A stretch of 55,321 bases of DNA from a virus (lineage: Duplodnaviria > Caudoviricetes). A program made the translations under genes and the position numbers. Below are positions 1,864-39,362 of this stretch, one piece after another. The DNA lies in IMG/VR virus record IMGVR_UViG_3300025000_000129, positions 1 to 55,321 of that record; one strand, given 5' to 3'. The notes under the pieces were generated by a model that was given only the letters and a program-made list of their open reading frames with translations, did not search any database and was not told where the DNA came from. Position 1 is the stretch's first letter. Each line of letters starts with the position of its first letter.

Positions 1864-2086
1864 ATCACCACCTCATTTATTGGACTGTAACTTTTTAAGG
1901 CAGCAGTAGAGCCCGGACATTCTTCGCGAGTGCCGGGCTCAATAAAATTGTGTGCTGCCTGATAAATTATTATAGGAGGATTGAAACTGCAAAAGAAAAG
2001 AACCGCTCGGATGAACGGTTTTTGCATAACTGTATCAACTATACACAGTATAACATATATGTATGTCGCATTACTGACATCTTTTA

Positions 2087-2530
2087 CTAAACCCTTAACC
2101 CTCTTTCCCTTGCAACCATCTTCCTTGCCTGTGCTAACCACCGGTATATCTGCCTATCTGAAGCCGGTATGTGGATTTCCGCTTGATGTACCCTGTCTTG
2201 TATGTCGCCCCGTTCAATGTCTTTCCAGCAATCCTTAAAGTATACCATCTCAATAGCCTGCAGGATGCTCTTATGCTCACATACATCCAGTGCATACAGT
2301 ACCTTGTCCACAGCCTCGATGTCTGCTAGTTCGGCGGCGTGCTCAGATATAACCTCTTCTTTTTTGATCAATTCCGATTCTGTCGGGCTGCATACACCTG
2401 AGCCTTTTGTGCGCTGCATATCCTCAATGAGATTCTTTATGTATTTATTTCTGCCACCTGACTTGGCGTAGAAACGGAAACATTCAGTGGTATAGTCTCT
2501 TATGTTGTCTTTTTTCATATGTGCCGTCAC
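2087..2530 (-). CDS. ArpU/RinA-like late transcriptional activator
   Basis: C-terminal sigma-region-4-like HTH (SDRQIYRWLAQAR); position at the end of the early operon, upstream of packaging genes. Confidence 0.65.
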   Translation of the reverse strand: MTAHMKKDNIRDYTTECFRFYAKSGGRNKYIKNLIEDMQRTKGSGVCSPTESELIKKEEVISEHAAELADIEAVDKVLYALDVCEHKSILQAIEMVYFKDCWKDIERGDIQDRVHQAEIHIPASDRQIYRWLAQARKMVARERGLRV

Positions 2531-2531
2531 C

Positions 2532-2843
2532 TCACTCTTTCGGATACCATGAAATTTCTAACTTGTCACTTGAAATTCCCGTTTCAAAACTTACCTTAAA
2601 ACCTTGTTCATTAAGTTCCTGCTCAAAAGCTTTTATATCTGCATAATTGCAATTCTCGGGAAACCTGTATTCTATCCGGTAACTGCCTTTATCTGCTGCG
2701 GTGCTTATTGCAAGATATGTTTTTTCTTTCGCTTCTTCAAATAGTTTATCCCTTGCCTCGCTTGCTTTTTTGATTGCCTGTTCTTTCGATATCTTGAAAT
2801 TCTCTATCAGCGGAAATGGTATACCGTGTTCTGTTTTGTTCAT
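2532..2843 (-). CDS. Hypothetical phage protein
   Basis: ORF track; RBS before MNKTEHG. Confidence 0.6.
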   Translation of the reverse strand: MNKTEHGIPFPLIENFKISKEQAIKKASEARDKLFEEAKEKTYLAISTAADKGSYRIEYRFPENCNYADIKAFEQELNEQGFKVSFETGISSDKLEISWYPKE

Positions 2844-2874
2844 TAGCGCCTCACCTTCCCCTCTTATCCTCTGT

Positions 2875-3138
2875 TTAATTGTCAAATACACTATCTCCCC
2901 AGTGCTGAAATATTACTTGTTGTAATGCTGCCGAAAATTCTTTCAACTTCTCCCATTGGTTAGGGTTATACTTTTTTAAATAGTCTCTGTGATTGTTCTG
3001 GAAAACAAGTTCATTTTGTGCTTCCAAGATTTTTGCATATTCCATCTTTGACAACTTTTCAGGCTTTTGAGATAAATTGAAGAACCCATTTTGAGGTTTA
3101 TAATTTGATATGATCGCTTCTGCTTCTTTGTTTGTCAT
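2875..3138 (-). CDS. Hypothetical protein
   Basis: ORF track with RBS; flanked by imperfect direct repeats. Confidence 0.65.
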   Translation of the reverse strand: MTNKEAEAIISNYKPQNGFFNLSQKPEKLSKMEYAKILEAQNELVFQNNHRDYLKKYNPNQWEKLKEFSAALQQVIFQHWGDSVFDN

Positions 3139-3155
3139 TACCTTTTGCTCCCCTT

Positions 3156-3476
3156 TTATCCTCTGTAATTGTGCAATTCATCAACAATAACCGTGCTAAT
3201 AATATTAACCCTGCCCTTACTTATCCTTGCCACCGTCTCAACTCCGTAATCCCTGCCGTTTGACAAGTCCACACCTATGATTAACTTGCTGTATACCTTC
3301 TTCAAATCTTTGAACGGCTTATAACGCTTGCTGTGACAGGCTCGCAGGATTCTGTCGAGCATCATGTATTTTCCATTTCGCCTGCTGGAATATAAAAGAT
3401 GCTTATTGAGGAATTTAAACCGTTCATGTATGTTTTTGGCTCTCTTTTTCTTTTGGCGTTTGTTCAAATTTCTCAC
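3156..3476 (-). CDS. Hypothetical basic protein
   Basis: ORF track; GAGGGG RBS at the GTG start. Confidence 0.6.
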   Translation of the reverse strand: MRNLNKRQKKKRAKNIHERFKFLNKHLLYSSRRNGKYMMLDRILRACHSKRYKPFKDLKKVYSKLIIGVDLSNGRDYGVETVARISKGRVNIISTVIVDELHNYRG

Positions 3477-3491
3477 CCCTCTTATCGTTTG

Positions 3492-3515
3492 TTTGGAATA
3501 TCTTGTTATTGCGAA
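3492..3515 (-). repeat. Putative recombinase site, 3' class: TTCGCAAT-AACAAGAT-ATTCCAAA
   Basis: Starts immediately after the TAA of 3516..3653; imperfect inverted arms around an 8-bp spacer. Confidence 0.7.
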
Positions 3516-3653
3516 TTAAAAATCGCCCTCTATAATCGCTTGTTCTCTGTCAAATTTATGTTCACAATCCTCACAAACAAAAAGTTCCTCATCACTATCA
3601 CTAACAAAACAAACACTTTCGCTCGAGCATTTGGGGCATATAACTTTAAGCAT
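3516..3653 (-). CDS. Small Zn-ribbon protein (cassette A1)
   Basis: MLKVICPKC...CEDC with GGAG RBS; trimmed from ORF 3516..3731. Confidence 0.6.
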   Translation of the reverse strand: MLKVICPKCSSESVCFVSDSDEELFVCEDCEHKFDREQAIIEGDF

Positions 3654-3825
3654 TTCTTTTATCTCCTTCACATATTTTTTTTTCAAACTTATCGCAAGCC
3701 ATTGTTTTCTTACAAACCTTGTAATATCCACTGTCTTTACATGTACACTTCAATATTTCTTCAAAAACGATTGATGAATACTGAACTGCATGCTTGCATT
3801 CACCGCACTTACTATGGTTTGACAT
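3646..3825 (-). CDS. Small Cys-rich protein, 59 aa, not in ORF track (cassette A1)
   Basis: Read manually: MSNHSKCGECKHAVQ...CDKFEKKICEGDKRNA; AGGAAG RBS. Confidence 0.55.
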   Translation of the reverse strand: MSNHSKCGECKHAVQYSSIVFEEILKCTCKDSGYYKVCKKTMACDKFEKKICEGDKRNA

Positions 3826-3837
3826 GTTGTCTCTTCC

Positions 3838-3877
3838 TTCGCATAATTTTATAAATGGTCTTTCCTTTTATTGCGCA
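3838..3877 (-). repeat. Compound putative recombinase site (3' site TGCGCAAT-AAAAGGAA-AGACCATT sharing an arm with 5' site AGACCATT-TATAAAAT-TATGCGAA)
   Basis: Fills the gap between the stop of 3879..4241 and the RBS of the next gene. Confidence 0.6.
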
Positions 3878-3878
3878 A

Positions 3879-4241
3879 TCAGGCATATGGCTGAATACTC
3901 ACAGTAATAACCTTTTCCCATTCGTAGGCATCAACTTTTGCTTTCGCCAATATATCAAGATTAACTTCATCGGAACAGCTACCTTCTCGCACTATCTCAT
4001 CCATTGCCTCTTCAACCAGTTCGTCATAGTCATTTGACTTACTGTACATACGTTCCCCGCCTTCATAGCACCATATTTCATTTATCTCTGGCATTCCCCA
4101 GCTTGCTATCCAGTAGCTAAAATCATCACTTGAAATACACTCGGTATCAACCATTGGCATAATCCTCAAATCTGGATTTGCCTGTACTAACTCAATAAAC
4201 TTTTTTATGTTTTCCTGTTGAACTTCCATTTCAGTTCTCAT
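3879..4241 (-). CDS. Hypothetical acidic phage protein (cassette A2)
   Basis: ORF track, RBS GGGAG. Confidence 0.75.
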   Translation of the reverse strand: MRTEMEVQQENIKKFIELVQANPDLRIMPMVDTECISSDDFSYWIASWGMPEINEIWCYEGGERMYSKSNDYDELVEEAMDEIVREGSCSDEVNLDILAKAKVDAYEWEKVITVSIQPYA

Positions 4242-4260
4242 AAATATACTCCCTTCATTC

Positions 4261-4284
4261 TTCGTATTGTTTATAAAGTTTGAA
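4261..4284 (-). repeat. Putative recombinase site, 5' class: TTCAAACT-TTATAAAC-AATACGAA
   Basis: Just upstream of the RBS of 3879..4241; inverted arms, TTATAAAn spacer. Confidence 0.65.
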
Positions 4285-4288
4285 CCTG

Positions 4289-5257
4289 TTATGCTGTTTC
4301 CTTTGCCTTGATTACCCTGTCAAGATACCACTGGGCTTTGCGAAGATCCTCAAGTCCGCCTTTATAACGATACCTGGATAAATACTTAAGCGCATTACCT
4401 ACGCAGAATCCCTCGAACATTTCTGTCGGCATTTTGTCCTGCAGGTAATCAATAACCTCTATTGTGCCTGTGGTATAATGCTTTGGATGATTAATGTTAT
4501 CAGCAGCTACCATCTCCATCATCTCGTCAACCTCAGCAGCTGTGTCGATCTTCTTTATTGATTCCTTGGCCTTTTGAACGACAGCTTCATTTGCTACACC
4601 TGCAATACCTGCAATCTCTGGATATTCCTCTGTTTCAATAACCGTTTCCACATGCTCTTCGTGGCTGTTGATGTCAGAAATCGCAAATTCATCCGCAATC
4701 ACTATATCCGTATTTGTTCCAATTAACTTTTCCTTCTTCACACCCTGTTTCTTCCCATTCAGCAACATTGTCACCTTTGCCATAATCATGCTCATTTTCA
4801 TTGCCGGATACGATTCTGCAAACTGTTCCGCTATCTCTTTTACCGTCATCCCTCTGCCCGTCATTTCCTTTACCGCTTCTTTCGTCATCTTACTCATTTC
4901 TTCACCCTCACCTTTCTTCTTCATCAAGTTTCTATAACAGGCAGCTCCCGTGCCTTTCCTGTACTCTTCCATACTGCAGCTTGTCTCTTCCCGTTCAACC
5001 TTCATCACGTCCACCATCGGCTTAAACCGTATTTCTATACTATCTTCCAACTGCAATCTATACCTGCGTTGCCTCAGGTCGATAATGTTTATTGTTTCAA
5101 TGTATCCGGTGTCCTTCCGCAGTCTGAGCATACGATCAGTGATTGCTTCCACAGAGAAGAGACCTATTCTTCGATAGCCACCGGGTTTACTTGTGGTACC
5201 TTTTTTGAATTTTAAAAGAAAAACCTTCGTTCCAACCTGTAAATCATTAGCGTTCAA
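4289..5257 (-). CDS. Protein with C-terminal DUF3310 (SaV-like) domain
   Basis: DNINHPKHYT.G.IEVIDY...GNALKYLSRY..KGG.EDL.KA.WYL signature; a possible internal start at MSKMTKE. Confidence 0.8.
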   Translation of the reverse strand: MNANDLQVGTKVFLLKFKKGTTSKPGGYRRIGLFSVEAITDRMLRLRKDTGYIETINIIDLRQRRYRLQLEDSIEIRFKPMVDVMKVEREETSCSMEEYRKGTGAACYRNLMKKKGEGEEMSKMTKEAVKEMTGRGMTVKEIAEQFAESYPAMKMSMIMAKVTMLLNGKKQGVKKEKLIGTNTDIVIADEFAISDINSHEEHVETVIETEEYPEIAGIAGVANEAVVQKAKESIKKIDTAAEVDEMMEMVAADNINHPKHYTTGTIEVIDYLQDKMPTEMFEGFCVGNALKYLSRYRYKGGLEDLRKAQWYLDRVIKAKETA

Positions 5258-9160: not shown

Positions 9161-9706
9161 CTACTTTCCGAGCCATGGGAATTGCCCTTGTTGCGCCGGT
9201 TGACCTTGCTGCCCTTGCTGGCTTGCTGGCTGGCCTTGTTGCTGACCGTTTGCCCATGGTGCCGCTGCCGGCTGCTGTCCTGCTGGTTGCTGTGCTGCCT
9301 GTTGTCCCTGATTCTGCTGTCCTGCCCCCTTCGCCCAATCCGGTTCAGGTCCATTCTGTGGATTTGATTGAGCCCCAGCACTATCCCCATCCTTCTTGCT
9401 ATCCGCAAACCCGACCTGCTCTGCAACAATTTCCGTAACATAATGTTTGACCTGCTTGTCATCGTCCCAGCTTCTAGTCTGAATTCTTCCTTGTACCCAC
9501 ACCTGCTGCCCCTTCTTGAAATACTTTGAACAAAATTCTGAAGTCTTTCCCCATGCCACCACAGGAAGGAAATCCGCGTCCGGCTGCCCATCCTGCTTAA
9601 CTCTCCTGTTTACTGCCAGCGTGAAGCCTCCTACTGCTGTGTTATTGGCTGTGTACCTCTGCTCAACTTCTTTGCAAAGCCTACCTATTAACGTACAATT
9701 ATTCAT
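9161..9706 (-). CDS. ssb: Single-stranded DNA-binding protein with Gln-rich tail
   Basis: MN...LIGRL...FTLAVNR...ADF..VVAWGK..E...KG..V.V.GRIQTRSW. Confidence 0.95.
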   Translation of the reverse strand: MNNCTLIGRLCKEVEQRYTANNTAVGGFTLAVNRRVKQDGQPDADFLPVVAWGKTSEFCSKYFKKGQQVWVQGRIQTRSWDDDKQVKHYVTEIVAEQVGFADSKKDGDSAGAQSNPQNGPEPDWAKGAGQQNQGQQAAQQPAGQQPAAAPWANGQQQGQPASQQGQQGQPAQQGQFPWLGK

Positions 9707-9753
9707 GCCTTTCCGACCTCCTGTATTTTAAATATTTTGTTAACTTGCGTATT

Positions 9754-9777
9754 TGCATATGGTCCTTCTAGCGCGAA
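9754..9777 (-). repeat. Putative recombinase site, 3' class: TTCGCGCT-AGAAGGAC-CATATGCA
   Basis: Begins immediately after the TAG of 9778..10023. Confidence 0.5.
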
Positions 9778-10023
9778 CTAATAACCTGTTGTCTCACAAT
9801 CTCGCTGGTATGAACAACCATCGTCTTTTTCAGGCTCAAGGATATGCCCGTTGTAAATCCTTGTAAGACGTACATATTCATCGCGTTCAATTTCTCGTAT
9901 AGCTCCTGGTTGCTTAAAGTGGTCACGTATTTTTTCTGGCTCCGCAAGCGCTGCTGCCGAACCAGCTTTAGCCTCTACCAATAGTGTGTTTTTTGAATCG
10001 GGTAAATCAAAATATCTTCTCAT
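9778..10023 (-). CDS. Hypothetical protein (cassette B)
   Basis: MRRYFDLPDS start with AGGAG RBS; trimmed from ORF 9778..10098. Confidence 0.65.
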   Translation of the reverse strand: MRRYFDLPDSKNTLLVEAKAGSAAALAEPEKIRDHFKQPGAIREIERDEYVRLTRIYNGHILEPEKDDGCSYQRDCETTGY

Positions 10024-10039
10024 TTCAGTTTCAATCTCC

Positions 10040-10063
10040 TTCACATTATTTTTTATATTCTGC
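10040..10063 (-). repeat. Putative recombinase site, 5' class (degenerate): GCAGAATA-TAAAAAAT-AATGTGAA
   Basis: Abuts the RBS of 9778..10023; only the inner arm is well conserved. Confidence 0.4.
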
Positions 10064-11492
10064 TCTTCCTCACCTTCGGACCTCCCGATATTTCGCACCC
10101 CAGCCCCTGATACACCTTCACCCGTTCTCTAGCCCAGTTCTTACAAGCCGTAACCTTACCATCCCAAATGTCATAAACCACCGGCATTGTCTTCCCCTCA
10201 AACGGTCTCATAACCCGCCCCACTGCCTGCTGAATTGAAGTCCGGTCTCTGTGTGGTGTAATCAACACCAACTTATTCAGCCTCGGGATGTCAAGGCCGA
10301 GCTTTGCCAGCGCATATGTTGCAAACAAAAACTGATACTTTCCTCCCCTCATGCCATCTATAATATGTTCTCGCACCTTTTTCGGAGTCGTCCCGCTGAT
10401 AAATTCAGCGTTTTTGCCATTTGCGCGCAATGAAGAGAAAATCATCCCAAGATGTTCCAGACTGTCACCCAGCACCAAGCAATAATCCTCGGGCATAATA
10501 TTTGCTGTCAATGTTCTGTGAAGAATTCGCTGTCTGTCAGCATCCTCCCTCATCGCCCCATACATCTGCTGCACCGACAACATTTCCTTCTCCCCGTCCT
10601 CGTCCACAGACTGCTCATAGACAAAATCTGTCTCAATGAATTCAACCCTAGGTTTCATAACACTCAGCCGCGGATCGTCCTGCGCCACCTCGTAGAATTT
10701 AGGACCTATAACATGGAACATTGTGGAGATAAGGCCGTCTGATCTATGCTCTGAAGCTGTCAGCCCAAACCGATAAAAAGCAGGAAACTGAGATATAACA
10801 GACTCAAACATCCGGGCTTTTGCCGCGTCTTTAAATACCAGGTGCGCTTCATCGATTACAATGCACCCGAACTTATTTTTTATAGCTGTCAAGTCTCTTT
10901 TACTTAAAGTCTGCACCGTGGCAAATGTGATATGCGTCCCAATGCTCATATTCTGCCCCTGTATAACCCCTATCTGGTTCCCCTTAAGCCCCAAAAACTT
11001 CACTGCACTGTCCATGCTCTGCTGCAACAAATCCATTGTGTGGGTAATCCATAAAGTAGGCTGCATAACCTGCCCAATCATCCCCATACCGCAACATGTC
11101 TTACCACTCCCACACGGTGCAATAAACACCCCCTGCTGCCACTGCTCCGCCAATTCCGGTACGGGCTCCTGATAATCTCTCAGCTGTGGGCCAGCAGGAA
11201 ACTCAATCTCAGGCAGCTTAATGCGGCGATCATCCACCATGTTCCAACTCAGCCCCACCAAATTCCACAGCTGCGCAAAATAGCCTCTCGGCAGTATGTA
11301 CTCCGTGGAATTATTAACCTTCTTCTCGCTATAGAGCTTGATATATTCCGAGAAGAAACAATACCTGTTAAGTCCCATTCTCCGCTTCTTATCGAACTCT
11401 GGGTTTCTGATAGTCAACTCTGCCTTAATTTGCTTCAGTATCTCTTCCGGCACATCACGGAGCCGGATTACGCTATCTAATGTAAGTTTCAA
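10053..11492 (-). CDS. SF2 DEAH-box helicase (ResIII/UvsW-like)
   Basis: LRDYQ, APCGSGKT, DEAH, GLTAS, GLDIP, QAVGRVMR. Confidence 0.92.
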   Translation of the reverse strand: MKLTLDSVIRLRDVPEEILKQIKAELTIRNPEFDKKRRMGLNRYCFFSEYIKLYSEKKVNNSTEYILPRGYFAQLWNLVGLSWNMVDDRRIKLPEIEFPAGPQLRDYQEPVPELAEQWQQGVFIAPCGSGKTCCGMGMIGQVMQPTLWITHTMDLLQQSMDSAVKFLGLKGNQIGVIQGQNMSIGTHITFATVQTLSKRDLTAIKNKFGCIVIDEAHLVFKDAAKARMFESVISQFPAFYRFGLTASEHRSDGLISTMFHVIGPKFYEVAQDDPRLSVMKPRVEFIETDFVYEQSVDEDGEKEMLSVQQMYGAMREDADRQRILHRTLTANIMPEDYCLVLGDSLEHLGMIFSSLRANGKNAEFISGTTPKKVREHIIDGMRGGKYQFLFATYALAKLGLDIPRLNKLVLITPHRDRTSIQQAVGRVMRPFEGKTMPVVYDIWDGKVTACKNWARERVKVYQGLGCEISGGPKVRKSRI

Positions 11493-29599: not shown

Positions 29600-30889
29600 A
29601 TGGCAAAATCGAGAAACCCGAAAGGGTTAGGGCATTACTATAAAAAAGATGGGCTGTTCTGCTGGAAGTATGTAAGGGATGGAAAGCCGCTTTACAGATC
29701 ACATAAGACAGAAAAAGGCCTTCAGGCAAAAGTTAAAAAGGTAATCGGCCTTGCTGTCTGCAATGACAAAACGAAAGTATCAAAATATTTTGAAACCTGG
29801 CTCGATGAATTCGTGCAAGCTATGAATAAAAAAGCCACTTATGATCAGTATGGTTTTATATATAAAATTCATATCAAACCCGTAATAGGTGATTATAATA
29901 TGTCTTCTATTACAACCACCGACATCCAAAAAGTAATTCTTGCAATGAATAAAAAAAAGTACGAGAAAAAAGATAAAGATGGTAAAGTAATAGAAACAAA
30001 AATAGGGACCTCCACAAAAACAATGAAGCACGCTAAAACCGTTATGAACGGAGCTTTCACAAGAGCATTTAAAATTGATAAGATCATACCGGAAAACCCC
30101 GTAAAAGACATTCTAATACCGGACAAGCAGCCTAAAAAAAGAAAGACACTGAATACTGATGAACTGGCAAGTTTCCTCACATCATTGCAAGGCTCTCGCT
30201 GGTTGTGGTCCGTAAAATTTGCCCTTGTGACAGGTGTAAGACGCGGAGAACTGCTTGCCTTGAAATGGGCTAATATAGATTGGGATAATAACAGAATAAT
30301 AATAGAAGAATCGGACAGCACATCAGGCCTTGGTGACACCAAAAGCGCAAGGGTTCATTACGTCCCACTGTCTCAATTTGGTAAGGTTTATTTGGACAAG
30401 CAAGTAGCTATGCTTTTAAAGGAAGGCAACAAGGTTACATTTAAAGAAACAGGCGAACAAATGGATCCAAAGGAATTAAAGAAGACGGACCGCTTGATAT
30501 TCCCCAAAGAAACTGGAGAAATGGTCAAACCCAATACCTATTATCATATGATAGTAAGGTATGCCAAAAAATCCGATATAAAGGTTCATCCGCATTGCTT
30601 CAGGCACACGTTTGTATACAATATGAGAAATAAGATGTCGCTGAAAGAGCTACAGGATGCACTAGGCCATGATGAATCTACAACTACATTAGATATATAC
30701 GGCGATATGATCAACGACACAACCGATGCTGTGGCCTCTAAAATCGATATGGTATACACCGGAGTGGAGGTAAATATTGCGAATAGACAAGCTGAAAACT
30801 TAGCAGAAAAAGAGGCTGAAAAAGAAGCAAAAGAACAGGCTGAAGAGTGCAAAATAATTGATATGTTTTCACGCAAAAAAGCAAATTAA
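29600..30889 (+). CDS. int: Phage tyrosine integrase
   Basis: TGVRRGELLAL, K, HCFRHT, LGH...TTLDIY; adjacent to attP. Confidence 0.95.
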   Translation: MAKSRNPKGLGHYYKKDGLFCWKYVRDGKPLYRSHKTEKGLQAKVKKVIGLAVCNDKTKVSKYFETWLDEFVQAMNKKATYDQYGFIYKIHIKPVIGDYNMSSITTTDIQKVILAMNKKKYEKKDKDGKVIETKIGTSTKTMKHAKTVMNGAFTRAFKIDKIIPENPVKDILIPDKQPKKRKTLNTDELASFLTSLQGSRWLWSVKFALVTGVRRGELLALKWANIDWDNNRIIIEESDSTSGLGDTKSARVHYVPLSQFGKVYLDKQVAMLLKEGNKVTFKETGEQMDPKELKKTDRLIFPKETGEMVKPNTYYHMIVRYAKKSDIKVHPHCFRHTFVYNMRNKMSLKELQDALGHDESTTTLDIYGDMINDTTDAVASKIDMVYTGVEVNIANRQAENLAEKEAEKEAKEQAEECKIIDMFSRKKAN

Positions 30890-33641: not shown

Positions 33642-34334
33642 TTATCCTTTCTTTATATAGTCAACCGTTTTACGTATTAACCAATAAATGTCCTTATCTA
33701 CCAATCCCTTTTTAACCCACTTTGCAACATCGACCACGATGCCTTTATTATTTAAGCATTCCACAAGCTCCTGTATGGTCGGCTCTGTTGCAACATATGT
33801 TATGTATGGCAGCTTCCCGTGCTTCACCCACATACGGTTATTCATACTAGGATTCGTGCCGATATTTTGACAGGCGGATACTTGCACCTTGTTGTCCCAT
33901 TTAGGTGTACATTCAATTACCTTACCGACACCGATATATATACCGATATGTCCAGGCATCCAGACAGCTTCCCCGATCTCAATGCCTGCAAAGTTTGTTG
34001 ATACACCAGAGCATTTAGCAATCATACCGTCAGCATTTATGTCAGGAACGCCACTAGATTTATATTTTGCTCCGCCGTATGTCTTAGTCAGATTGCCAGA
34101 CCAACCCCACAAGATACCTTTAATTACATTTACGCAGTCAAATGCAAAATAGCCCTTATCAATCAACTTGCGGAGCTCTGTTTGCTTTGCTGTCGTGTAC
34201 CAGGATGGCAGCTGCTTTGTTTTATTGGCGATCAGCGTTTCTGTCACAGGAGCGCCAAAGCAGCCTAACATGTATACAGTTTTGTAATTGTCAATAATGT
34301 CCTGCAACTTTTCAACCAGTTCTTTATTGGTCAA
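33642..34334 (-). CDS. Endolysin, NlpC/P60-like amidase/peptidase
   Basis: FDCVN.IKGILWGW catalytic Cys; GHIGIYIG.G.VIECT; TTG start with GGAGG RBS. Confidence 0.85.
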   Translation of the reverse strand: MTNKELVEKLQDIIDNYKTVYMLGCFGAPVTETLIANKTKQLPSWYTTAKQTELRKLIDKGYFAFDCVNVIKGILWGWSGNLTKTYGGAKYKSSGVPDINADGMIAKCSGVSTNFAGIEIGEAVWMPGHIGIYIGVGKVIECTPKWDNKVQVSACQNIGTNPSMNNRMWVKHGKLPYITYVATEPTIQELVECLNNKGIVVDVAKWVKKGLVDKDIYWLIRKTVDYIKKG

Positions 34335-34812
34335 TATTCTCCTCCTCCTTTTCCAATGCTTCATTACTTTTCTTCTTCACCCAAAATAATAGTGGTTTTA
34401 GGTAATCAGCTCCGGCATCAATTAAATTTTCAATATTGCTGGCAAACTCTCTAAAAAACAGAAATGAATATACCACTGTAGCTACAATATTGCTGATATA
34501 CGGTATGTCCACAAGCCTCATGGAGAGACCGGCGAGGATTTGGATTACCAGATAGGCTATTATTTTATCCCTTGTCTTTGCGTACATAGCCTGAGAGTTC
34601 CACGCCTTACTAATAAAAGCTTTCCGGATTCCGCCGGATTTCTTGAAAATAACGTACCACCTGGTTAAGCAGTCCAGCACCACTGCAATCCATAAGGCTG
34701 CTGTCCATGCTATAAAGGATTCCTCCGGCAGTATAAGCCATGTGCCGCACGCCCAAATTAAGGCGGTAACCGGCTTGACCGTTTCCAATACCTTGTAAAA
34801 CAGTTCATTCAT
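34324..34812 (-). CDS. Phage holin (holin_4_1 family)
   Basis: Multiple TMs; LD.LT, E..SNIENL..AG. Confidence 0.85.
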   Translation of the reverse strand: MNELFYKVLETVKPVTALIWACGTWLILPEESFIAWTAALWIAVVLDCLTRWYVIFKKSGGIRKAFISKAWNSQAMYAKTRDKIIAYLVIQILAGLSMRLVDIPYISNIVATVVYSFLFFREFASNIENLIDAGADYLKPLLFWVKKKSNEALEKEEENIDQ

Positions 34813-34929: not shown

Positions 34930-35919
34930 TTATGCTATGTTTTTCCTATGAATCATTTGTATATCTTCCTTATCCATTTGTGCGTAAATTTGAGTCGTTA
35001 CTGGGCTTTCATGGCCGAGCAACCTTTGCACCGCTGCCAGGCTTGCACCATTTCTAAGTAGGTTCGTTGCCATGGTATGCCTTAAAATATGAGGGTGAAT
35101 GTTCTTGGAGATACCGGCCCTGACGCCCAATTCTTTTATGATATCCTCAAAAGATTTTCCGCTTAGCCGATTATGTGGAAGCTTGCTGGCCACAAATAAC
35201 CCAGAGTTTGAATCGGTTCTCGTCTGAAGATAGTTTTTGAGAAATAGAATGGCTCTCGCACTGATATAAACCTCTCTTTCCTTGCTACCTTTTCCGATCA
35301 CAACACATGACTTATTTATCCAGTTGATATCATCACGATTCAATTTGTGCACCTCATCCAAACGGCAACCAGTAGAGTAAAAGAATTCAATGATAGCTTT
35401 TTCTCTTTCTGTTTTGCATGCATAGCGCAATAGCTCCAACTCTTCATCGGTGAGGGCTTTTCTCAAACTTTTCTTTACCTTTGTAGATTTGATATTCCAC
35501 ATTGGATTCTTCGGGATATAATCTTGGCCTGTCATCCACGAAAAGAACGATTTCAAAGTAGTAACAACCGTTGAAAGTGTGCTGTTCTGAATACCGGTTT
35601 GAGAATAATGCGCTAGGTACATCCGGATATCAATATCTGTTATCGCATCAACGTCCTTGCAAACAATCGTTGAAAACCTATTCAGTATGAGGAAATAGTT
35701 TTTGATTGTTTTTGGTGACATGCCGTCTATCCTTCTGGCGGCCAGATATAATCCAACTCTACTTGGTAGATTGTGTCGCAGAGCTAATGCAGTACATTCT
35801 GCTGTAATCGTGCAATGCTGCATTTCCTCTTGCATAATCAGCTGTAGTTTTCTAACTGTTTCCATATCCAGAAAACCTGAAGCCCTGTCCAACACCTTGA
35901 TAATAATTTCTTCTCTCAA
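34930..35919 (-). CDS. XerC/D-like tyrosine recombinase (second recombinase, without an arm-binding domain)
   Basis: SAM-like N-domain (G.S.KTI..Y); TGCRLDEV, GKGSKER, HILRHTMAT, LGH....TTQIY. Confidence 0.95.
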   Translation of the reverse strand: MREEIIIKVLDRASGFLDMETVRKLQLIMQEEMQHCTITAECTALALRHNLPSRVGLYLAARRIDGMSPKTIKNYFLILNRFSTIVCKDVDAITDIDIRMYLAHYSQTGIQNSTLSTVVTTLKSFFSWMTGQDYIPKNPMWNIKSTKVKKSLRKALTDEELELLRYACKTEREKAIIEFFYSTGCRLDEVHKLNRDDINWINKSCVVIGKGSKEREVYISARAILFLKNYLQTRTDSNSGLFVASKLPHNRLSGKSFEDIIKELGVRAGISKNIHPHILRHTMATNLLRNGASLAAVQRLLGHESPVTTQIYAQMDKEDIQMIHRKNIA

Positions 35920-35934
35920 TTAAAACGCCTCCTA

Positions 35935-36039
35935 TTGATACACAGGAGGCATAATGTTATAATGTTTATGCAAAGCACTTACCCCCCTGTGTAGGGGTCT
36001 GTGTGAAGGAGTTTCCGGTTGGCGCCGGGGGCTCCTTTT
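35935..36039 (+). ncRNA. Antisense sRNA (~70 nt, ~35970-36039) to the recombinase leader, with promoter and terminator
   Basis: TTGATA(35935)-17bp-TATAAT(35958) with extended TG; hairpin ACCCC..GGGGT; terminator AAGGAG..CCGG-TTGGCG-CCGG..CTCCTTTT. Confidence 0.7.
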
Positions 36040-36147
36040 GCTATATATAGATTTATAGCGGTAGACCTTACAAATATTGTATAGTATTCATGGGTCTATA
36101 GCTATAAGACGCATGGACTATTTGCATAGGACTTAGGGCCTAGTTAC

Positions 36148-36171
36148 GTTAACATTTTATCCTATTGCGAA
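36148..36171 (-). repeat. Putative recombinase site, 3' class: TTCGCAAT-AGGATAAA-ATGTTAAC
   Basis: Immediately after the TAA of 36172..37461; the 13-mer TATTGCGAATTAA is identical to 3507-3519. Confidence 0.7.
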
Positions 36172-37461
36172 TTAATCTAAGTTATATTCCTCATAAGCAT
36201 CGTCACTTACTGATAGCCCATCAATATAAATTGTGCGTGATGTTGCTCCGCTAAGTACTATCATTTCTGCAAATAGTGTAGCACCTATAGAGCCTTTTGG
36301 AGCAACAAACGTGCCAGTAAACCTTTGATAGCTTGTCGTTAAAGCTGTTTCTGTGTGTGTTAATTCAACTACGCTTAATGGATTACCTTCTCTTATCGCT
36401 CCGCCAGTTTTTATTGTTATTTTACTTCTAGTGTTCGCATCTCCGTCACCTTTTGCCCACCATGTAACACGATAAGTCTTACCGCCTTCAATATTTATAG
36501 CTCTTTGAGTTTGCTCGGCAGGAGTTATACCAACACCGTCCCAAATTAGTCTGATAGTATATGTATCCACAAATGGGGATATTGTAGTGAGTCCAGATGA
36601 ACCCTGTCTGCTTCCGGTTTCTACCCACCCCGAACCTATACCTATGCTACCTTCGTGGAGTAAATTATGTTTTTTTATGACTTTCCCAGGGTCAACAACA
36701 GGTATTTTCATATCGTTAAAATATTTCATCACTCGTTGATAACTTGCTACATCAATACCCCATACATCAGCGGTGTCACTAATGTTATGGAATAATATTG
36801 GTACATGATAACCCAATCTCAAAGCATCGAGCAAGGCTTTGCAAAAATTATTAAATCGTGTATCAGTCATTCCGTTGGCATCAACATTCCTAAATTCAAG
36901 ACTTGATGTTACAGCAAACCTAGTTTGCCCAGGCACTGTACCACTTACTGAGTTAGCGTCTTGCATGTCCCTAATATATGGGTGCAGTAAATACGCATAT
37001 TTTCTGGCCGCTTGCGAATATCCATGTCCCGGAGCAATAAAAGGTATTTCGGTGTTTGGGTTATTTGGTGCTTTCACCGCTGGATTTTGCAGTCCAAAAC
37101 CCCAAGTATAACGTAGAGTTTTATATGCCGCTTCAATTGCGGCTTTAGCTGTTGCATCGGTAGCGCCAAGATCATGTGTTTTGGAGTGATTCCCGATTAT
37201 CCACAAGCCCGAGTCATACATCTCTGTAAGCTGTGCCAATGTTAAAAAGCCTGCTGTGTTTATCCAGTCAGTGACAATACAGGCCACGCCAAGATAACCA
37301 TATTTGATATGCTCGGGGTGTGCATATGTATGCCAACCAGCAAATCCATCATCATACCAAAGTGATATGCTGCCACCGCCTATATAGTTCTGTTTCTTCG
37401 CAATTGATGCCAAGTTTGCGGTATTTTCCTTTATCTTTTTCCTTGCATATCCGTCCGTCAT
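36172..37461 (-). CDS. Polysaccharide deacetylase (NodB) plus CBM4/9-like protein with short N-terminal leader; probable virion/tail-associated
   Basis: SLWYDDG, GNHSKTH, ILFHNI; C-terminal GKTYRVTWWAK...YQRFTGTFVAP...IYIDGLSV. Confidence 0.8.
   Translation of the reverse strand: MTDGYARKKIKENTANLASIAKKQNYIGGGSISLWYDDGFAGWHTYAHPEHIKYGYLGVACIVTDWINTAGFLTLAQLTEMYDSGLWIIGNHSKTHDLGATDATAKAAIEAAYKTLRYTWGFGLQNPAVKAPNNPNTEIPFIAPGHGYSQAARKYAYLLHPYIRDMQDANSVSGTVPGQTRFAVTSSLEFRNVDANGMTDTRFNNFCKALLDALRLGYHVPILFHNISDTADVWGIDVASYQRVMKYFNDMKIPVVDPGKVIKKHNLLHEGSIGIGSGWVETGSRQGSSGLTTISPFVDTYTIRLIWDGVGITPAEQTQRAINIEGGKTYRVTWWAKGDGDANTRSKITIKTGGAIREGNPLSVVELTHTETALTTSYQRFTGTFVAPKGSIGATLFAEMIVLSGATSRTIYIDGLSVSDDAYEEYNLD
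37397..37420 (-). repeat. Putative recombinase site, 5' class, inside the coding sequence: CGCAAACT-TGGCATCA-ATTGCGAA (encodes ANLASIA)
   Basis: Inner arm is the exact inverted copy of 36164-36171. Confidence 0.7.
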
Positions 37462-37473
37462 ATCAATTCCTCC

Positions 37474-37671
37474 TTAGTGATTCCATGTTGTGCCGTCATA
37501 TACCCACCAATCAACTATTGTGCCTGCACCGTCTACCTCTGTAAATTCCGAAAGAGGTAAAACATCATCGTCCAAATGTTGGATTGATTTTGTTGGTTTT
37601 GCATCTGTGGATAATCCTATAAATTCGCTGGGCGTAGCCTTGTTAAATCTGTACTTTTCTTTTACTGCCAT
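37474..37671 (-). CDS. Small tail-fibre-like protein
   Basis: FIGLSTDAKPT...E.D....W.YDGTTW motif typical of tail-fibre segments. Confidence 0.6.
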   Translation of the reverse strand: MAVKEKYRFNKATPSEFIGLSTDAKPTKSIQHLDDDVLPLSEFTEVDGAGTIVDWWVYDGTTWNH

Positions 37672-37916: not shown

Positions 37917-38297
37917 TCAATTCACCCGATTGTCCGCCATATTATAAACGTGTCCGGTACTAAAATAAATCTGCGCCCCACTCTCCAACAACCCCTTATC
38001 CTGCAAAAACTTCAATATCGCCGTCACACTGTCGCCCTGCTTGATAGGCTGTGGACAATTGATGCTGGTCTGACCGACTAAATTATCATAATTATTGCTG
38101 GCGCAATGTAGAGCGATACAGTTGTTCATGGTGGCGATGCTTGACTGGTCTGCCGCGATCTTCGCTTGGTCTTTCATTCCGGATACCTTCGGCACCAGAA
38201 TTGCTGCTAAAATCACCAGAATACATACGCAAACTACTAATTCGATTAATGTAAATCCCTTCCTACTGTTCCTTGAAACCTTCCGCATTTTTAACAT
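37917..38297 (-). CDS. Type IV pilin-like protein 2
   Basis: Basic leader, RKG|FTLIELVVCVCILVILAAILVP class III signal with E5. Confidence 0.9.
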   Translation of the reverse strand: MLKMRKVSRNSRKGFTLIELVVCVCILVILAAILVPKVSGMKDQAKIAADQSSIATMNNCIALHCASNNYDNLVGQTSINCPQPIKQGDSVTAILKFLQDKGLLESGAQIYFSTGHVYNMADNRVN

Positions 38298-38417
38298 TTC
38301 AACTACCTCCATAAATTTATTTATTTGTCATAAGTATATATTTATCATAAAGCATTGTCAATATATATTTGCAATAAATATATAAATATGATAATATTAT
38401 TTTTAGGAGGTGGTCTT

Positions 38418-38588: not shown

Positions 38589-38903
38589 TTATATTTTTAC
38601 TACCTGTGCTATCCAATTAAAATGTAGTAATAGTATCCACAGTTTTACTGCAAACATAACGCCAAGCCCGTACCCTATCCATCTAATTTTATGCTGCACC
38701 TTATATACCAGCAACAAGAGCAATCCCACGCCCAGCACAACTAGCACTGCCGCCAGTTCGGGGCTTGCGTGAAATAGTTGCTGTAGTAGAGGGTTAGCCT
38801 CCTCAATTACGCCATCCTTTACGCCTAGCGTGGTAAATATCGCATCGGCTATGGTCATTATAAATATTGCAACGTAAATCCATGCTTTCATAAAATCACC
38901 CAT
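38589..38903 (-). CDS. DUF5658-like membrane protein
   Basis: DAIFT..GV..G..EEANPLL; three TMs. Confidence 0.75.
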   Translation of the reverse strand: MGDFMKAWIYVAIFIMTIADAIFTTLGVKDGVIEEANPLLQQLFHASPELAAVLVVLGVGLLLLLVYKVQHKIRWIGYGLGVMFAVKLWILLLHFNWIAQVVKI

Positions 38904-38969: not shown

Positions 38970-39362
38970 TTATGGGGTTATTACGGCCGTATCACCGGTT
39001 AAACGTCTCGAGGTAAAACCTCCTGTCGCAGTGGTATAAACAAAGCCACCATCAGCCTCCAAAACAAATGTGCCTGTTACTTTTGACATATTTGTTACGG
39101 CGGTTACAGCCGCAGCATCAATTGGATAGTTAGCAAGAGCTACAGTGATAGGTGTAAGACTTTCTGCGGCGATTCCATCAATGGCAGTAGCAACTTGCTT
39201 ACCGTCAACTATAGCCTGCGTTGCCCTCGCCTTATCTTGGAATCCTGAAAACTTAGGTATAATTATCGCCGCTAAGATTCCCATAATTGCGATAACCACA
39301 ATTAATTCGATCAGTGTAAAGCCCTTTTTCTTTCGCATTTGTTTTTGCATAAACATTAACAT
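38970..39362 (-). CDS. Type IV major-pilin-like protein 1
   Basis: KKKG|FTLIELIVVIAIMGILAAIIIPKF; own promoter-like TTGTAA..TGCTATTAT upstream and terminator 38932-38955. Confidence 0.93.
   Translation of the reverse strand: MLMFMQKQMRKKKGFTLIELIVVIAIMGILAAIIIPKFSGFQDKARATQAIVDGKQVATAIDGIAAESLTPITVALANYPIDAAAVTAVTNMSKVTGTFVLEADGGFVYTTATGGFTSRRLTGDTAVITP

Follow-up and report, generated by a model that had tools for sequence, protein, structure and literature searches.

The question raised by this locus is whether a gene in the tail region of a phage carries an exchangeable body behind a constant leader, and what part, if any, the neighbouring tyrosine recombinase plays in the exchange. The gene lies on the minus strand of a 55,321-bp virus record (IMG/VR record IMGVR_UViG_3300025000_000129), the whole of which is called the window here; the record is complete (CheckV completeness 100). 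It encodes a protein of 429 amino acids (aa). From the comparison of related sequences, we find it fairly probable that this is an accessory tail protein of receptor-binding type, built from a leader, a linker and a body that joins a CE4/NodB deacetylase to a carbohydrate-binding module (CBM) of the CBM4 type, and that it occupies a hypervariable slot whose content is exchanged by recombination between phages at two junctions, J1 and J2. The features on which the argument turns are as follows.

36172..37461, minus strand: open reading frame (ORF) of 429 aa, leader plus putative CE4/NodB deacetylase plus CBM4; homologues P0002 (63% identity) and P0003 (40%)
37399..37461, minus strand: leader, codons 1-21, a low-confidence predicted helix, common to locus L006 and varying between alleles
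37397..37404, minus strand: J1, the 8-mer ATTGCGAA, codons 20-22, where the leader similarity to L006 ends
36676..37377, minus strand: predicted NodB/CE4 domain, about residues 29-262 (invariant residues in alignment A2; PgaB/BpsB matches)
36175..36675, minus strand: predicted CBM4/9-like beta-sandwich, about residues 263-429 (Foldseek; weak Pfam CBM_4_9 match)
36143..36175, minus strand: J2 junction element, TTAATTCGCAAT..., overlapping the stop codon, at the left edge of a conserved block (DNA alignment A5; position weight matrix, PWM)
34930..35919, minus strand: Xer-like tyrosine recombinase, 329 aa (Phage_integrase, 4.4e-38; NF040815, 235.9 bits, cutoff 220)

The sequence-only reading that drew attention to the locus had described this ORF with an 8-mer inside its leader, an inverted copy of the 8-mer after the stop codon and a recombinase gene close by. 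All three were confirmed in the sequence, as were its other sequence statements: the inverted copy (TTCGCAAT, 36164-36171) lies directly 3' of the TAA stop codon (36172-36174), and the recombinase gene starts at 35919, 252 nucleotides (nt) past that codon. It is real that both 8-mers coincide with the module junctions J1 and J2.

The evidence for replacement at these junctions came from related loci. IMG/VR was searched using the recombinase as query rather than the feature under test, and 11 loci were confirmed among 217 pattern matches. The recombinase relatives are L005, L006 (the same as L010), L007, L008 and L009, plus more distant loci. L008 and L009 share a left flank of 492 nt of a BppU_N-type fibre gene at 99.8% identity, and a right flank of 2002 nt, from J2 through the recombinase, at 99.75% identity. 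What lies between them is 3.2 kb long in L008, where a reverse transcriptase and small ORFs accompany a fibre C-terminus, and 0.76 kb in L009, where two small ORFs accompany a different fibre C-terminus. On the left the break falls in frame, after ...NAHKAES, and the same junction with its downstream module is found again in L008, in a second gene whose N-terminal part differs. Since all five mismatches of the right flank fall within the first 12 nt of J2, the left half of J2 travels with the cassette. As judged from these alignments, the pair shows a recent replacement between near-identical flanks, and cassette replacement is supported as an evolutionary pattern.

At J1 the comparison is with L006, where the recombinase is 88% identical over the 107 visible residues and an SU10-type adaptor gene is present. 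In this locus a 54-aa ORF with the LSTDxKPT motif of the 65-aa protein encoded upstream of the window's leader gene (E 7e-4) runs into the start of a 293-aa ORF. The N-terminus of the latter reads KKNTEDLASIT against KENTANLASIA in the window. The DNA match, a run with two differences between L006 and the window, spans the 8-mer, with one difference inside it, and diverges past CGAA, so that the similarity stops right after the 8-mer in both protein and DNA; the rest of the 293-aa protein is unrelated to the window body and matches no Pfam or PHROG family. When the leader was compared with 337 N-termini of ATG-initiated ORFs from 14 loci, that of L006 ranked first with a score of 39 (background mean 15.9, standard deviation 3.9, runner-up 30), and 4 of 5000 shuffled leaders reached this score. 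The leader and LSTDxKPT motifs were not found elsewhere in six-frame translations of the loci scanned at that point. The homologue check that the sequence-only reading had suggested, with the 65-aa protein and the leader as guides, therefore turned up an unrelated body fused right after the 8-mer in a related phage, at one locus.

The converse arrangement, the same body behind different N-termini, is seen as well. The body family occurs behind four other N-termini, and the alignments to the window protein begin at residues 27-29. P0002 aligns from residue 29 and has an unrelated N-terminus of 77 residues; P0003, P0007 and P0009 align from 27-29 and begin with a 25-residue leader, a putative signal peptide and an Mtd_N domain, respectively. 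P0001, a 99% allele, differs at residues 14, 16 and 21 only, of 429, and the chance that all three differences fall within the first 28 of the 429 residues is about 3e-4. In the AlphaFold model a helix is predicted at residues 4-21, where the predicted local distance difference test (pLDDT) is below 50. A diversity-generating retroelement acting on the leader was considered and rejected, as no leader repeat is present in the window and the differences are N-terminal.

The small gene in front of the leader gene appears to be its conserved partner.

37474..37671, minus strand: gene for a small protein of 65 aa, 5' of the leader gene, conserved partner (three homologues, 76-86% identity)

Besides the 54-aa ORF of L006, its motif occurs at the N-terminus of a 169-aa ORF in L005 and nowhere else in the loci scanned. 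Scans with the protein alone or with alignment A1 gave no relatives, the one metagenome locus returned (L002) being spurious; a tblastn search against cultured phages gave no match, and the small protein 3' of the tail gene in the Acetoanaerobium phage ANDSL2_ph1 has no similarity to it. The values from the ESM Atlas (0.85-0.86) are at chance level, and one lead, pointing to the N-terminal domain of a tail fibre assembly protein, was not confirmed. A scan with the 28-aa leader alignment also gave no relatives.

At the other end of the slot, alignment A5 revealed a conserved non-coding block of about 250 nt 5' of the recombinase in the window, L006, L007 and L008. Its left edge is TTAnnTCGCAAT; L007, L008 and L009 share it with the window, and L006 has it in triplicate. 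In the window, L008 and L009 the motif encloses the stop codon of an unrelated upstream gene, while in L007 it begins with the base that follows the stop. Two of the three direct J2-like copies in L006 follow successive small genes, and an inverted copy (11/12) lies directly 3' of a zinc-ribbon (Zn-ribbon) gene. A PWM was built leaving out the target locus, and its scores were compared with shuffle maxima. J2 ranked first in the window (21.6, shuffle maximum 16.4) and in L009 (20.9, 16.0), and two J2 copies ranked first and second in L006 (17.4 and 15.2 against a maximum of 13.3). It was also first in L007 (15.3 vs 15.8) and L008 (15.2 vs 18.7), but not above the shuffles. From these results the stop-codon junction motif is a real conserved element. 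In number, L006 has its three direct copies, two of them above every shuffle; in the window one copy lies at the slot and a second 33 kb off. The latter is the second PWM match of the window (16.4, equal to the shuffle maximum) and directly follows the stop of a 71-aa Zn-ribbon ORF.

This distant copy is an exact second TAATTCGCAATA at 3507-3518 on the minus strand, in the same orientation as J2 and right after the Zn-ribbon ORF (3516-3731, minus strand); the L006 array of the motif likewise includes a Zn-ribbon gene. The J2 12-mer was also considered as a genome-wide repeat and rejected, because in the whole records of the relatives its count with one mismatch is not above that of the reversed control. 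One extra exact 12-mer copy sits inside a coding ORF, whose product, by our reading of the translation, resembles a terminase.

Within the block, the part nearest to the recombinase is structured.

35920..36060, minus strand: structured non-coding block with four predicted hairpins, the last of which sequesters the ribosome-binding site (RBS); 82% nucleotide identity to L006

The fold z-scores are -4.9 and -4.1 for the two strands, a consensus structure was obtained, and a terminator-like site lies at 35952-35925. The hairpins of the block are kept in L006, L007 and L008. The terminator-like hairpin at 35925-35963 contains the AGGAGG RBS of the recombinase, just 5' of its TTG start. On the opposite strand, a strong GC hairpin (35964-36050 region) and a T-run come after a promoter-like site (11/12; 35935-35963), so that a small antisense RNA of about 70 nt is possible.

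The body of the protein is read as a CE4/NodB deacetylase plus a CBM4 module, an assignment that holds through its relatives only. This was the domain reading made from the sequence alone, and it was borne out by the relatives rather than by the window protein itself. An exhaustive HMMER search with the 429-aa protein gave 422 representatives at E<=1e-3, 7 at 1e-10 and 2 at 1e-30. PF01522 was found in 10/10 of the homologues scanned (150 were listed); for example, P0002 scores 23.3 bits (cutoff 23.1) and P0003 57.3. For CBM_4_9 (PF02018) the scores are 34.9 bits for P0002 and 35.1 for P0009. When a five-member family profile was compared with the PDB, it matched PgaB/BpsB deacetylases at 1.9e-13 and CBM4-2 (3jxs) at 5e-10. 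The catalytic and metal-binding motifs of CE4 enzymes comprise an Asp-Asp pair, a His-x-x-x-His motif and the histidine of a Leu-x-His motif. D37, D38, H92, H96 and H225 are invariant across the five-member alignment A2, so the catalytic and metal-binding motifs of CE4/NodB are present there, while the arginine of the third motif is not evident; to the conserved stretches of the NodB domain we give what we take to be their motif names, WYDDG, HSKTH and LFH. The best Foldseek matches are CBM4-2 (E 1.8e-9, template modelling score to target 0.57) and C-terminal domains of phage tailspikes, and those listed are CBM4/16/22 modules and such tailspike domains. Both the beta-sandwich fold and the family match expected of CBM4/9 are thus found, by Foldseek, by the profile and by Pfam on P0002 and P0009. 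The Mtd_N domain in front of the same body in P0009 is a tail association. The family is rare: a word search of 5.8 billion proteins gave 2 matches, and 2 representatives reach E<=1e-30. When collections were scanned with the 429-aa protein alone or with alignment A2, no relatives were found; a scan with the tail protein gave none either.

Two cultured phages allow a comparison of the gene order. Clostridium phage phiCp-D (gp25-gp28, MW478291.1) and Terrisporobacter phage TPELB_ph1 (CDS0022-0026, PP197244.1) show the same succession of last tail gene, Xer-like 'integrase', holin and endolysin; the order of tail or variable gene, recombinase and holin is common to the window, L008, TPELB_ph1 and phiCp-D. 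Their recombinases are 38-40% identical to that of the window, and, by our reading of the sequence, an RBS-containing hairpin lies just 5' of the recombinase start, as in the window. The J2 motif, on the other hand, is not conserved over this distance. In phiCp-D the gene in the corresponding position, upstream of the recombinase, carries the annotation polysaccharide deacetylase; the product has 819 aa with a long N-terminal part and NodB at about residues 230-300, and shows 31% identity over 83 residues to the window protein. A full-text literature search returned no study of the phiCp-D recombinase. A further relative is gp35 of Gordonia phage Orchid (KU998253.1, L003), annotated as a minor tail protein, which has PF01522 and 40% identity over 68 residues; its NodB domain is at 236-350, in the C-terminal half, and a weak CBM-like match (E 0.011) is in the N-terminal half, so the domain order is opposite to that of the window, and its host is actinobacterial. 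The best solved relatives of the catalytic domain are PgaB/BpsB (PDB 5bu6, 4u10, 4f9d), which share its metal-binding and catalytic motifs. These are periplasmic biofilm enzymes and not phage proteins, and the TIGR03938 equivalog model gives 18.8 bits here, with a cutoff of 321.9.

How the content of the slot is exchanged is a separate matter, for which three explanations were weighed against recombination between phages. The sequence-only reading had placed the body between inverted arms. In an inversion switch the 8-mers would be recombination arms, and the recombinase would flip the 1.2-kb body, turning the gene off or on. The two exact 8-mers, one in the leader and one abutting the stop codon, and the adjoining tyrosine recombinase speak for it, and in TPELB_ph1 a 10-bp inverted repeat pairs codons 2-5 of the upstream gene with a site 42 nt past its stop. 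As repeats, however, the 8-mers are coincidental and at chance level. The 1.49 kb from 36072 to 37561 contain 25 exact 8-mer inverted pairs (27 including palindromes, against 24.9 +/- 6.1 in 200 shuffles). Among the 57 non-overlapping ORFs of at least 100 aa in the whole window, 4 show an inverted 8-mer match that pairs the first 100 nt with the 50 nt beyond the stop, where about 3.5 are expected (0.061 per gene). When the whole intergenic region is taken as the search space, 196/500 shuffles yield an 8-mer for the window. The 10-mer of TPELB_ph1 is also unsurprising, because about 10 loci were examined, with 0.03 expected per locus by our own estimate. The repeat of the window ends at 8 nt without extension, no inverted repeat of at least 12 nt flanks the 429-aa gene, and the whole-window search gave no notable inverted repeat near the recombinase. 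An in-silico flip of the segment gives 22 residues and then a stop, so that the gene is truncated and no alternative module appears; as the sequence-only reading had noticed, the opposite strand has no usable alternative ORF (longest open stretch 99 codons, 15-25 stops per frame). Neither the specific repeats nor the alternative segment in the flipped state that define an invertible segment were thus found. In Logan contigs from two runs both arms are crossed in the reference orientation only, with no strand-changing joint listed, and record 5 of run X1 spans 35419-37452 with 0 differences; rare orientations could be missed, because contigs drop rare variants. With the tyrosine-invertase models the recombinase stays below the cutoffs of 221 and 222, at 47 and 34 bits.

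In another explanation the recombinase would act on J2 and an in-frame J1, and would excise, insert or swap receptor-binding bodies and small accessory genes in a manner resembling an integron or recombinase-mediated cassette exchange. The window recombinase gene is intact and above the NF040815 cutoff, and it adjoins the variable slot in 8/8 loci with visible upstream sequence (window, L005-L009, TPELB_ph1 and phiCp-D). Its upstream block begins with J2 exactly at the stop codons of unrelated genes, the crossover of L008 and L009 lies inside J2, L006 has its direct copies after small genes and its inverted copy after the Zn-ribbon gene, and the second TAATTCGCAATA of the window is also directly post-stop. 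The left junction of L008 sits at the breakpoint and resembles J2 at 22/34 positions, but this is within the range of the shuffle maxima (mean 20.1, maximum 24). J1 of the window is not J2-like, being outside the top 8 PWM matches and the top 34-mer matches; in the records of the relatives the 12-mer with one mismatch does not outnumber its reversed control, and its sole extra exact copy is the one within the terminase-like ORF. No rearranged molecule was seen among the contigs. The recombinase belongs to the Xer family by NF040815, while the XerC/XerD equivalogs are below cutoff (204 vs 330-335) and the integron-integrase model gives 93.5 bits (cutoff 265). It is just as possible that the conserved block is the regulatory region of the recombinase, or an attachment or resolution site; phiCp-D encodes ParM. 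From this evidence we regard recombinase-driven exchange as unlikely and the inversion switch as extremely improbable. The corresponding general picture, in which Clostridia-type phages of sipho-, myo- and podo-like form would use their own Xer-like recombinase to cut and paste receptor-binding bodies and small accessory genes between phages at junction motifs as an integron-like host-range system, is doubtful to the same degree. Nothing special may be going on at all: the gene would be an ordinary one, the junctions conserved blocks that end at gene boundaries and the leader a common fibre-linker motif. Mosaic boundaries of phages are often at gene ends, the leader match depends on about 11 residues, and in the phiCp-D deacetylase a leader-like stretch, ANASSIYKDKNG, is internal (residues 217-228, just before the NodB domain), so the 'leader' may be the N-terminal extension of the NodB domain itself. 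Against this stand the first rank of the L006 N-terminus among 337, reached in 4/5000 shuffles and following a syntenic small gene, the recent replacement between near-identical flanks in L008 and L009, and the recurrence of J2 after unrelated genes, three times within L006; we consider this explanation rather improbable.

Several further candidates were examined. An integron was rejected, as the integrase scores below the cutoffs of the TIGR02249 (93.5 bits vs 265) and NF011946 (52.6 vs 435) models. A general inverted-repeat rule across the recombinase loci was also rejected, since 6/10 loci have an 8-mer and shuffles have one in 27-81% of trials. No convincing dif-like site (11-bp arm, 6-8-bp spacer, 11-bp arm) was seen by eye, and no systematic search was made. 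In TPELB_ph1 (L017 3987-3996 and 5717-5767), besides the 10-bp inverted repeat, a perfect palindrome with 8-bp arms and an 8-nt spacer lies right after the stop of the gene upstream of the recombinase; this may be chance.

In the reading we prefer, exchange by recombination between phages, a temperate siphophage that probably infects Clostridia would encode the 429-aa accessory tail protein in three parts: the leader, some 21 residues long, is joined by a short linker to the enzymatic body with its predicted CE4/NodB and CBM4-like domains. The leader would dock the protein on the tail, and the body would bind and deacetylate cell-surface polysaccharide during adsorption. The hypervariable slot lies between the tail genes and a conserved module of Xer-like recombinase, holin and endolysin, and related phages keep the flanks and replace the content between J1, which keeps the reading frame and comes behind the leader or the N-terminal domain of a fibre, and J2, whose motif overlaps the stop codon. 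Co-infecting or resident phages would recombine at these short conserved junction sequences, and not by inversion at the 8-mers. The earlier proposal of a constant leader and exchangeable bodies beside a recombinase thus stands in its comparative pattern (L006, the four N-termini and J2); inversion at the 8-mers finds no support, and catalysis of the exchange by the recombinase is judged unlikely. Some observations weigh against our reading as well. The leader is on another body in one locus only (L006), and a word-based search with residues 1-40 returned the 99% allele alone (1 match, 2 candidates). The window protein has no PF01522 match at E<=0.01, and its CBM_4_9 match is sub-threshold (23.6 bits vs a cutoff of 25.9). 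The AlphaFold model is mediocre, with a mean pLDDT of 67 and residues 1-28 below 50, and among the Foldseek matches listed the CBM part alone is represented. Finally, a promoter-like site at 38361-38333 lies upstream of a pilin-like gene, and because of it the 429-aa gene could belong to a moron operon and not to the virion.

The architecture has counterparts in other phages. In Klebsiella phages and in phages K1E, K1-5 and SP6, N-terminal peptides of 7-29 aa are conserved per group in front of diverse enzymatic bodies (PMC6872550). In the parts of this study available to us (Latka et al. 2019, PMC6872550), the receptor-binding proteins likewise have the same body behind an anchor or a peptide, and their exchange was inferred from comparative genomics. 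When compared to the window, those systems are depolymerases of Gram-negative podo- and myophages rather than a CE4 deacetylase with a CBM in a Clostridia-type siphophage, and the same parts mention neither a neighbouring conserved recombinase nor a junction motif. In what was available of a paper on genome-wide inversion, the tail fibres of proteobacterial prophages are the sole mention of phage tails (PMC5903667). Our full-text literature search, which did not extend to supplements, found no account of a Clostridia-phage recombinase between tail and holin genes that acts on tail genes.

Recombinases beside a tail or adhesin gene with a constant N-terminal part are well known from Mu Gin, P1 Cin, Rci shufflons and intragenic invertons. 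In all of these the specific repeats are longer and the opposite strand carries alternative coding segments; the window has neither. The exchange of receptor-binding modules is the main route of host change in phages, and is usually credited to undirected recombination. Here the variable slot has defined junction motifs and, beside it, a conserved and intact tyrosine recombinase, across distantly related phages of which two are cultured. If the recombinase does act on the motifs, this would be a programmed host-range change and a natural scaffold for studying module exchange; otherwise the locus still shows clearly that the short-leader architecture extends beyond phages with Gram-negative hosts. 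Even without recombinase-driven exchange, it contributes a rare tail-associated family of CE4 deacetylase plus CBM.

Most genes of the window are on the minus strand. The structural genes run from the terminase through portal, capsid, tail tube and tape measure to a 963-aa tail protein, and are followed by two prepilin-type genes with DUF5658, a 53-aa ORF, the 65-aa ORF and the 429-aa gene; 3' of the latter are the 329-aa recombinase, the holin and the endolysin. The remaining sequence holds replication and methylase genes, and two further features are to be distinguished.

33642..34812, minus strand: holin and endolysin, directly downstream of the recombinase (Phage_holin_4_1; phrog_3513 endolysin)
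29600-30889, plus strand: separate lysogeny integrase

The closest cultured tail proteins are from Acetoanaerobium and Coprococcus phages. No anomaly in GC content was seen over the 429-aa gene, and in the Rfam scan no family reached its gathering score. Within the tail module lie the prepilin-type genes (N_methyl, GspG/ComGC-like) and the gene for a DUF5658 membrane protein (37917-38312, 38970-39362 and 38589-38903, all on the minus strand), and the AT-rich stretch 38313-38400 has divergent promoter-like sites.

Some variation was observed around the recombinase and the slot. The window DNA is present in four runs, all from one groundwater study. Runs X1 and X3 contain a second variant of the recombinase gene (window 35066-35800) at a depth similar to that of the window; in one contig it has 44 differences in 734 nt, and the alignment to the window is lost beyond about 35800-35925. 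In L005 the recombinase gene is interrupted by about 330 nt (4638-4968) at the position equivalent to 35081 of the window, and its parts have 72% and 80% DNA identity to the window gene. L008 carries three further features (150-1894, 2018-5157 and 9433-10686), whose ORF labels are our reading of the translations. One is an insertion with a resolvase-like and a TnpB-like ORF. The reverse transcriptase of L008, beside the BppU_N-type fibre gene, may belong to a diversity-generating retroelement, and a second, beta-helix-type gene of the same locus ends in the same C-terminal module as the fibre.

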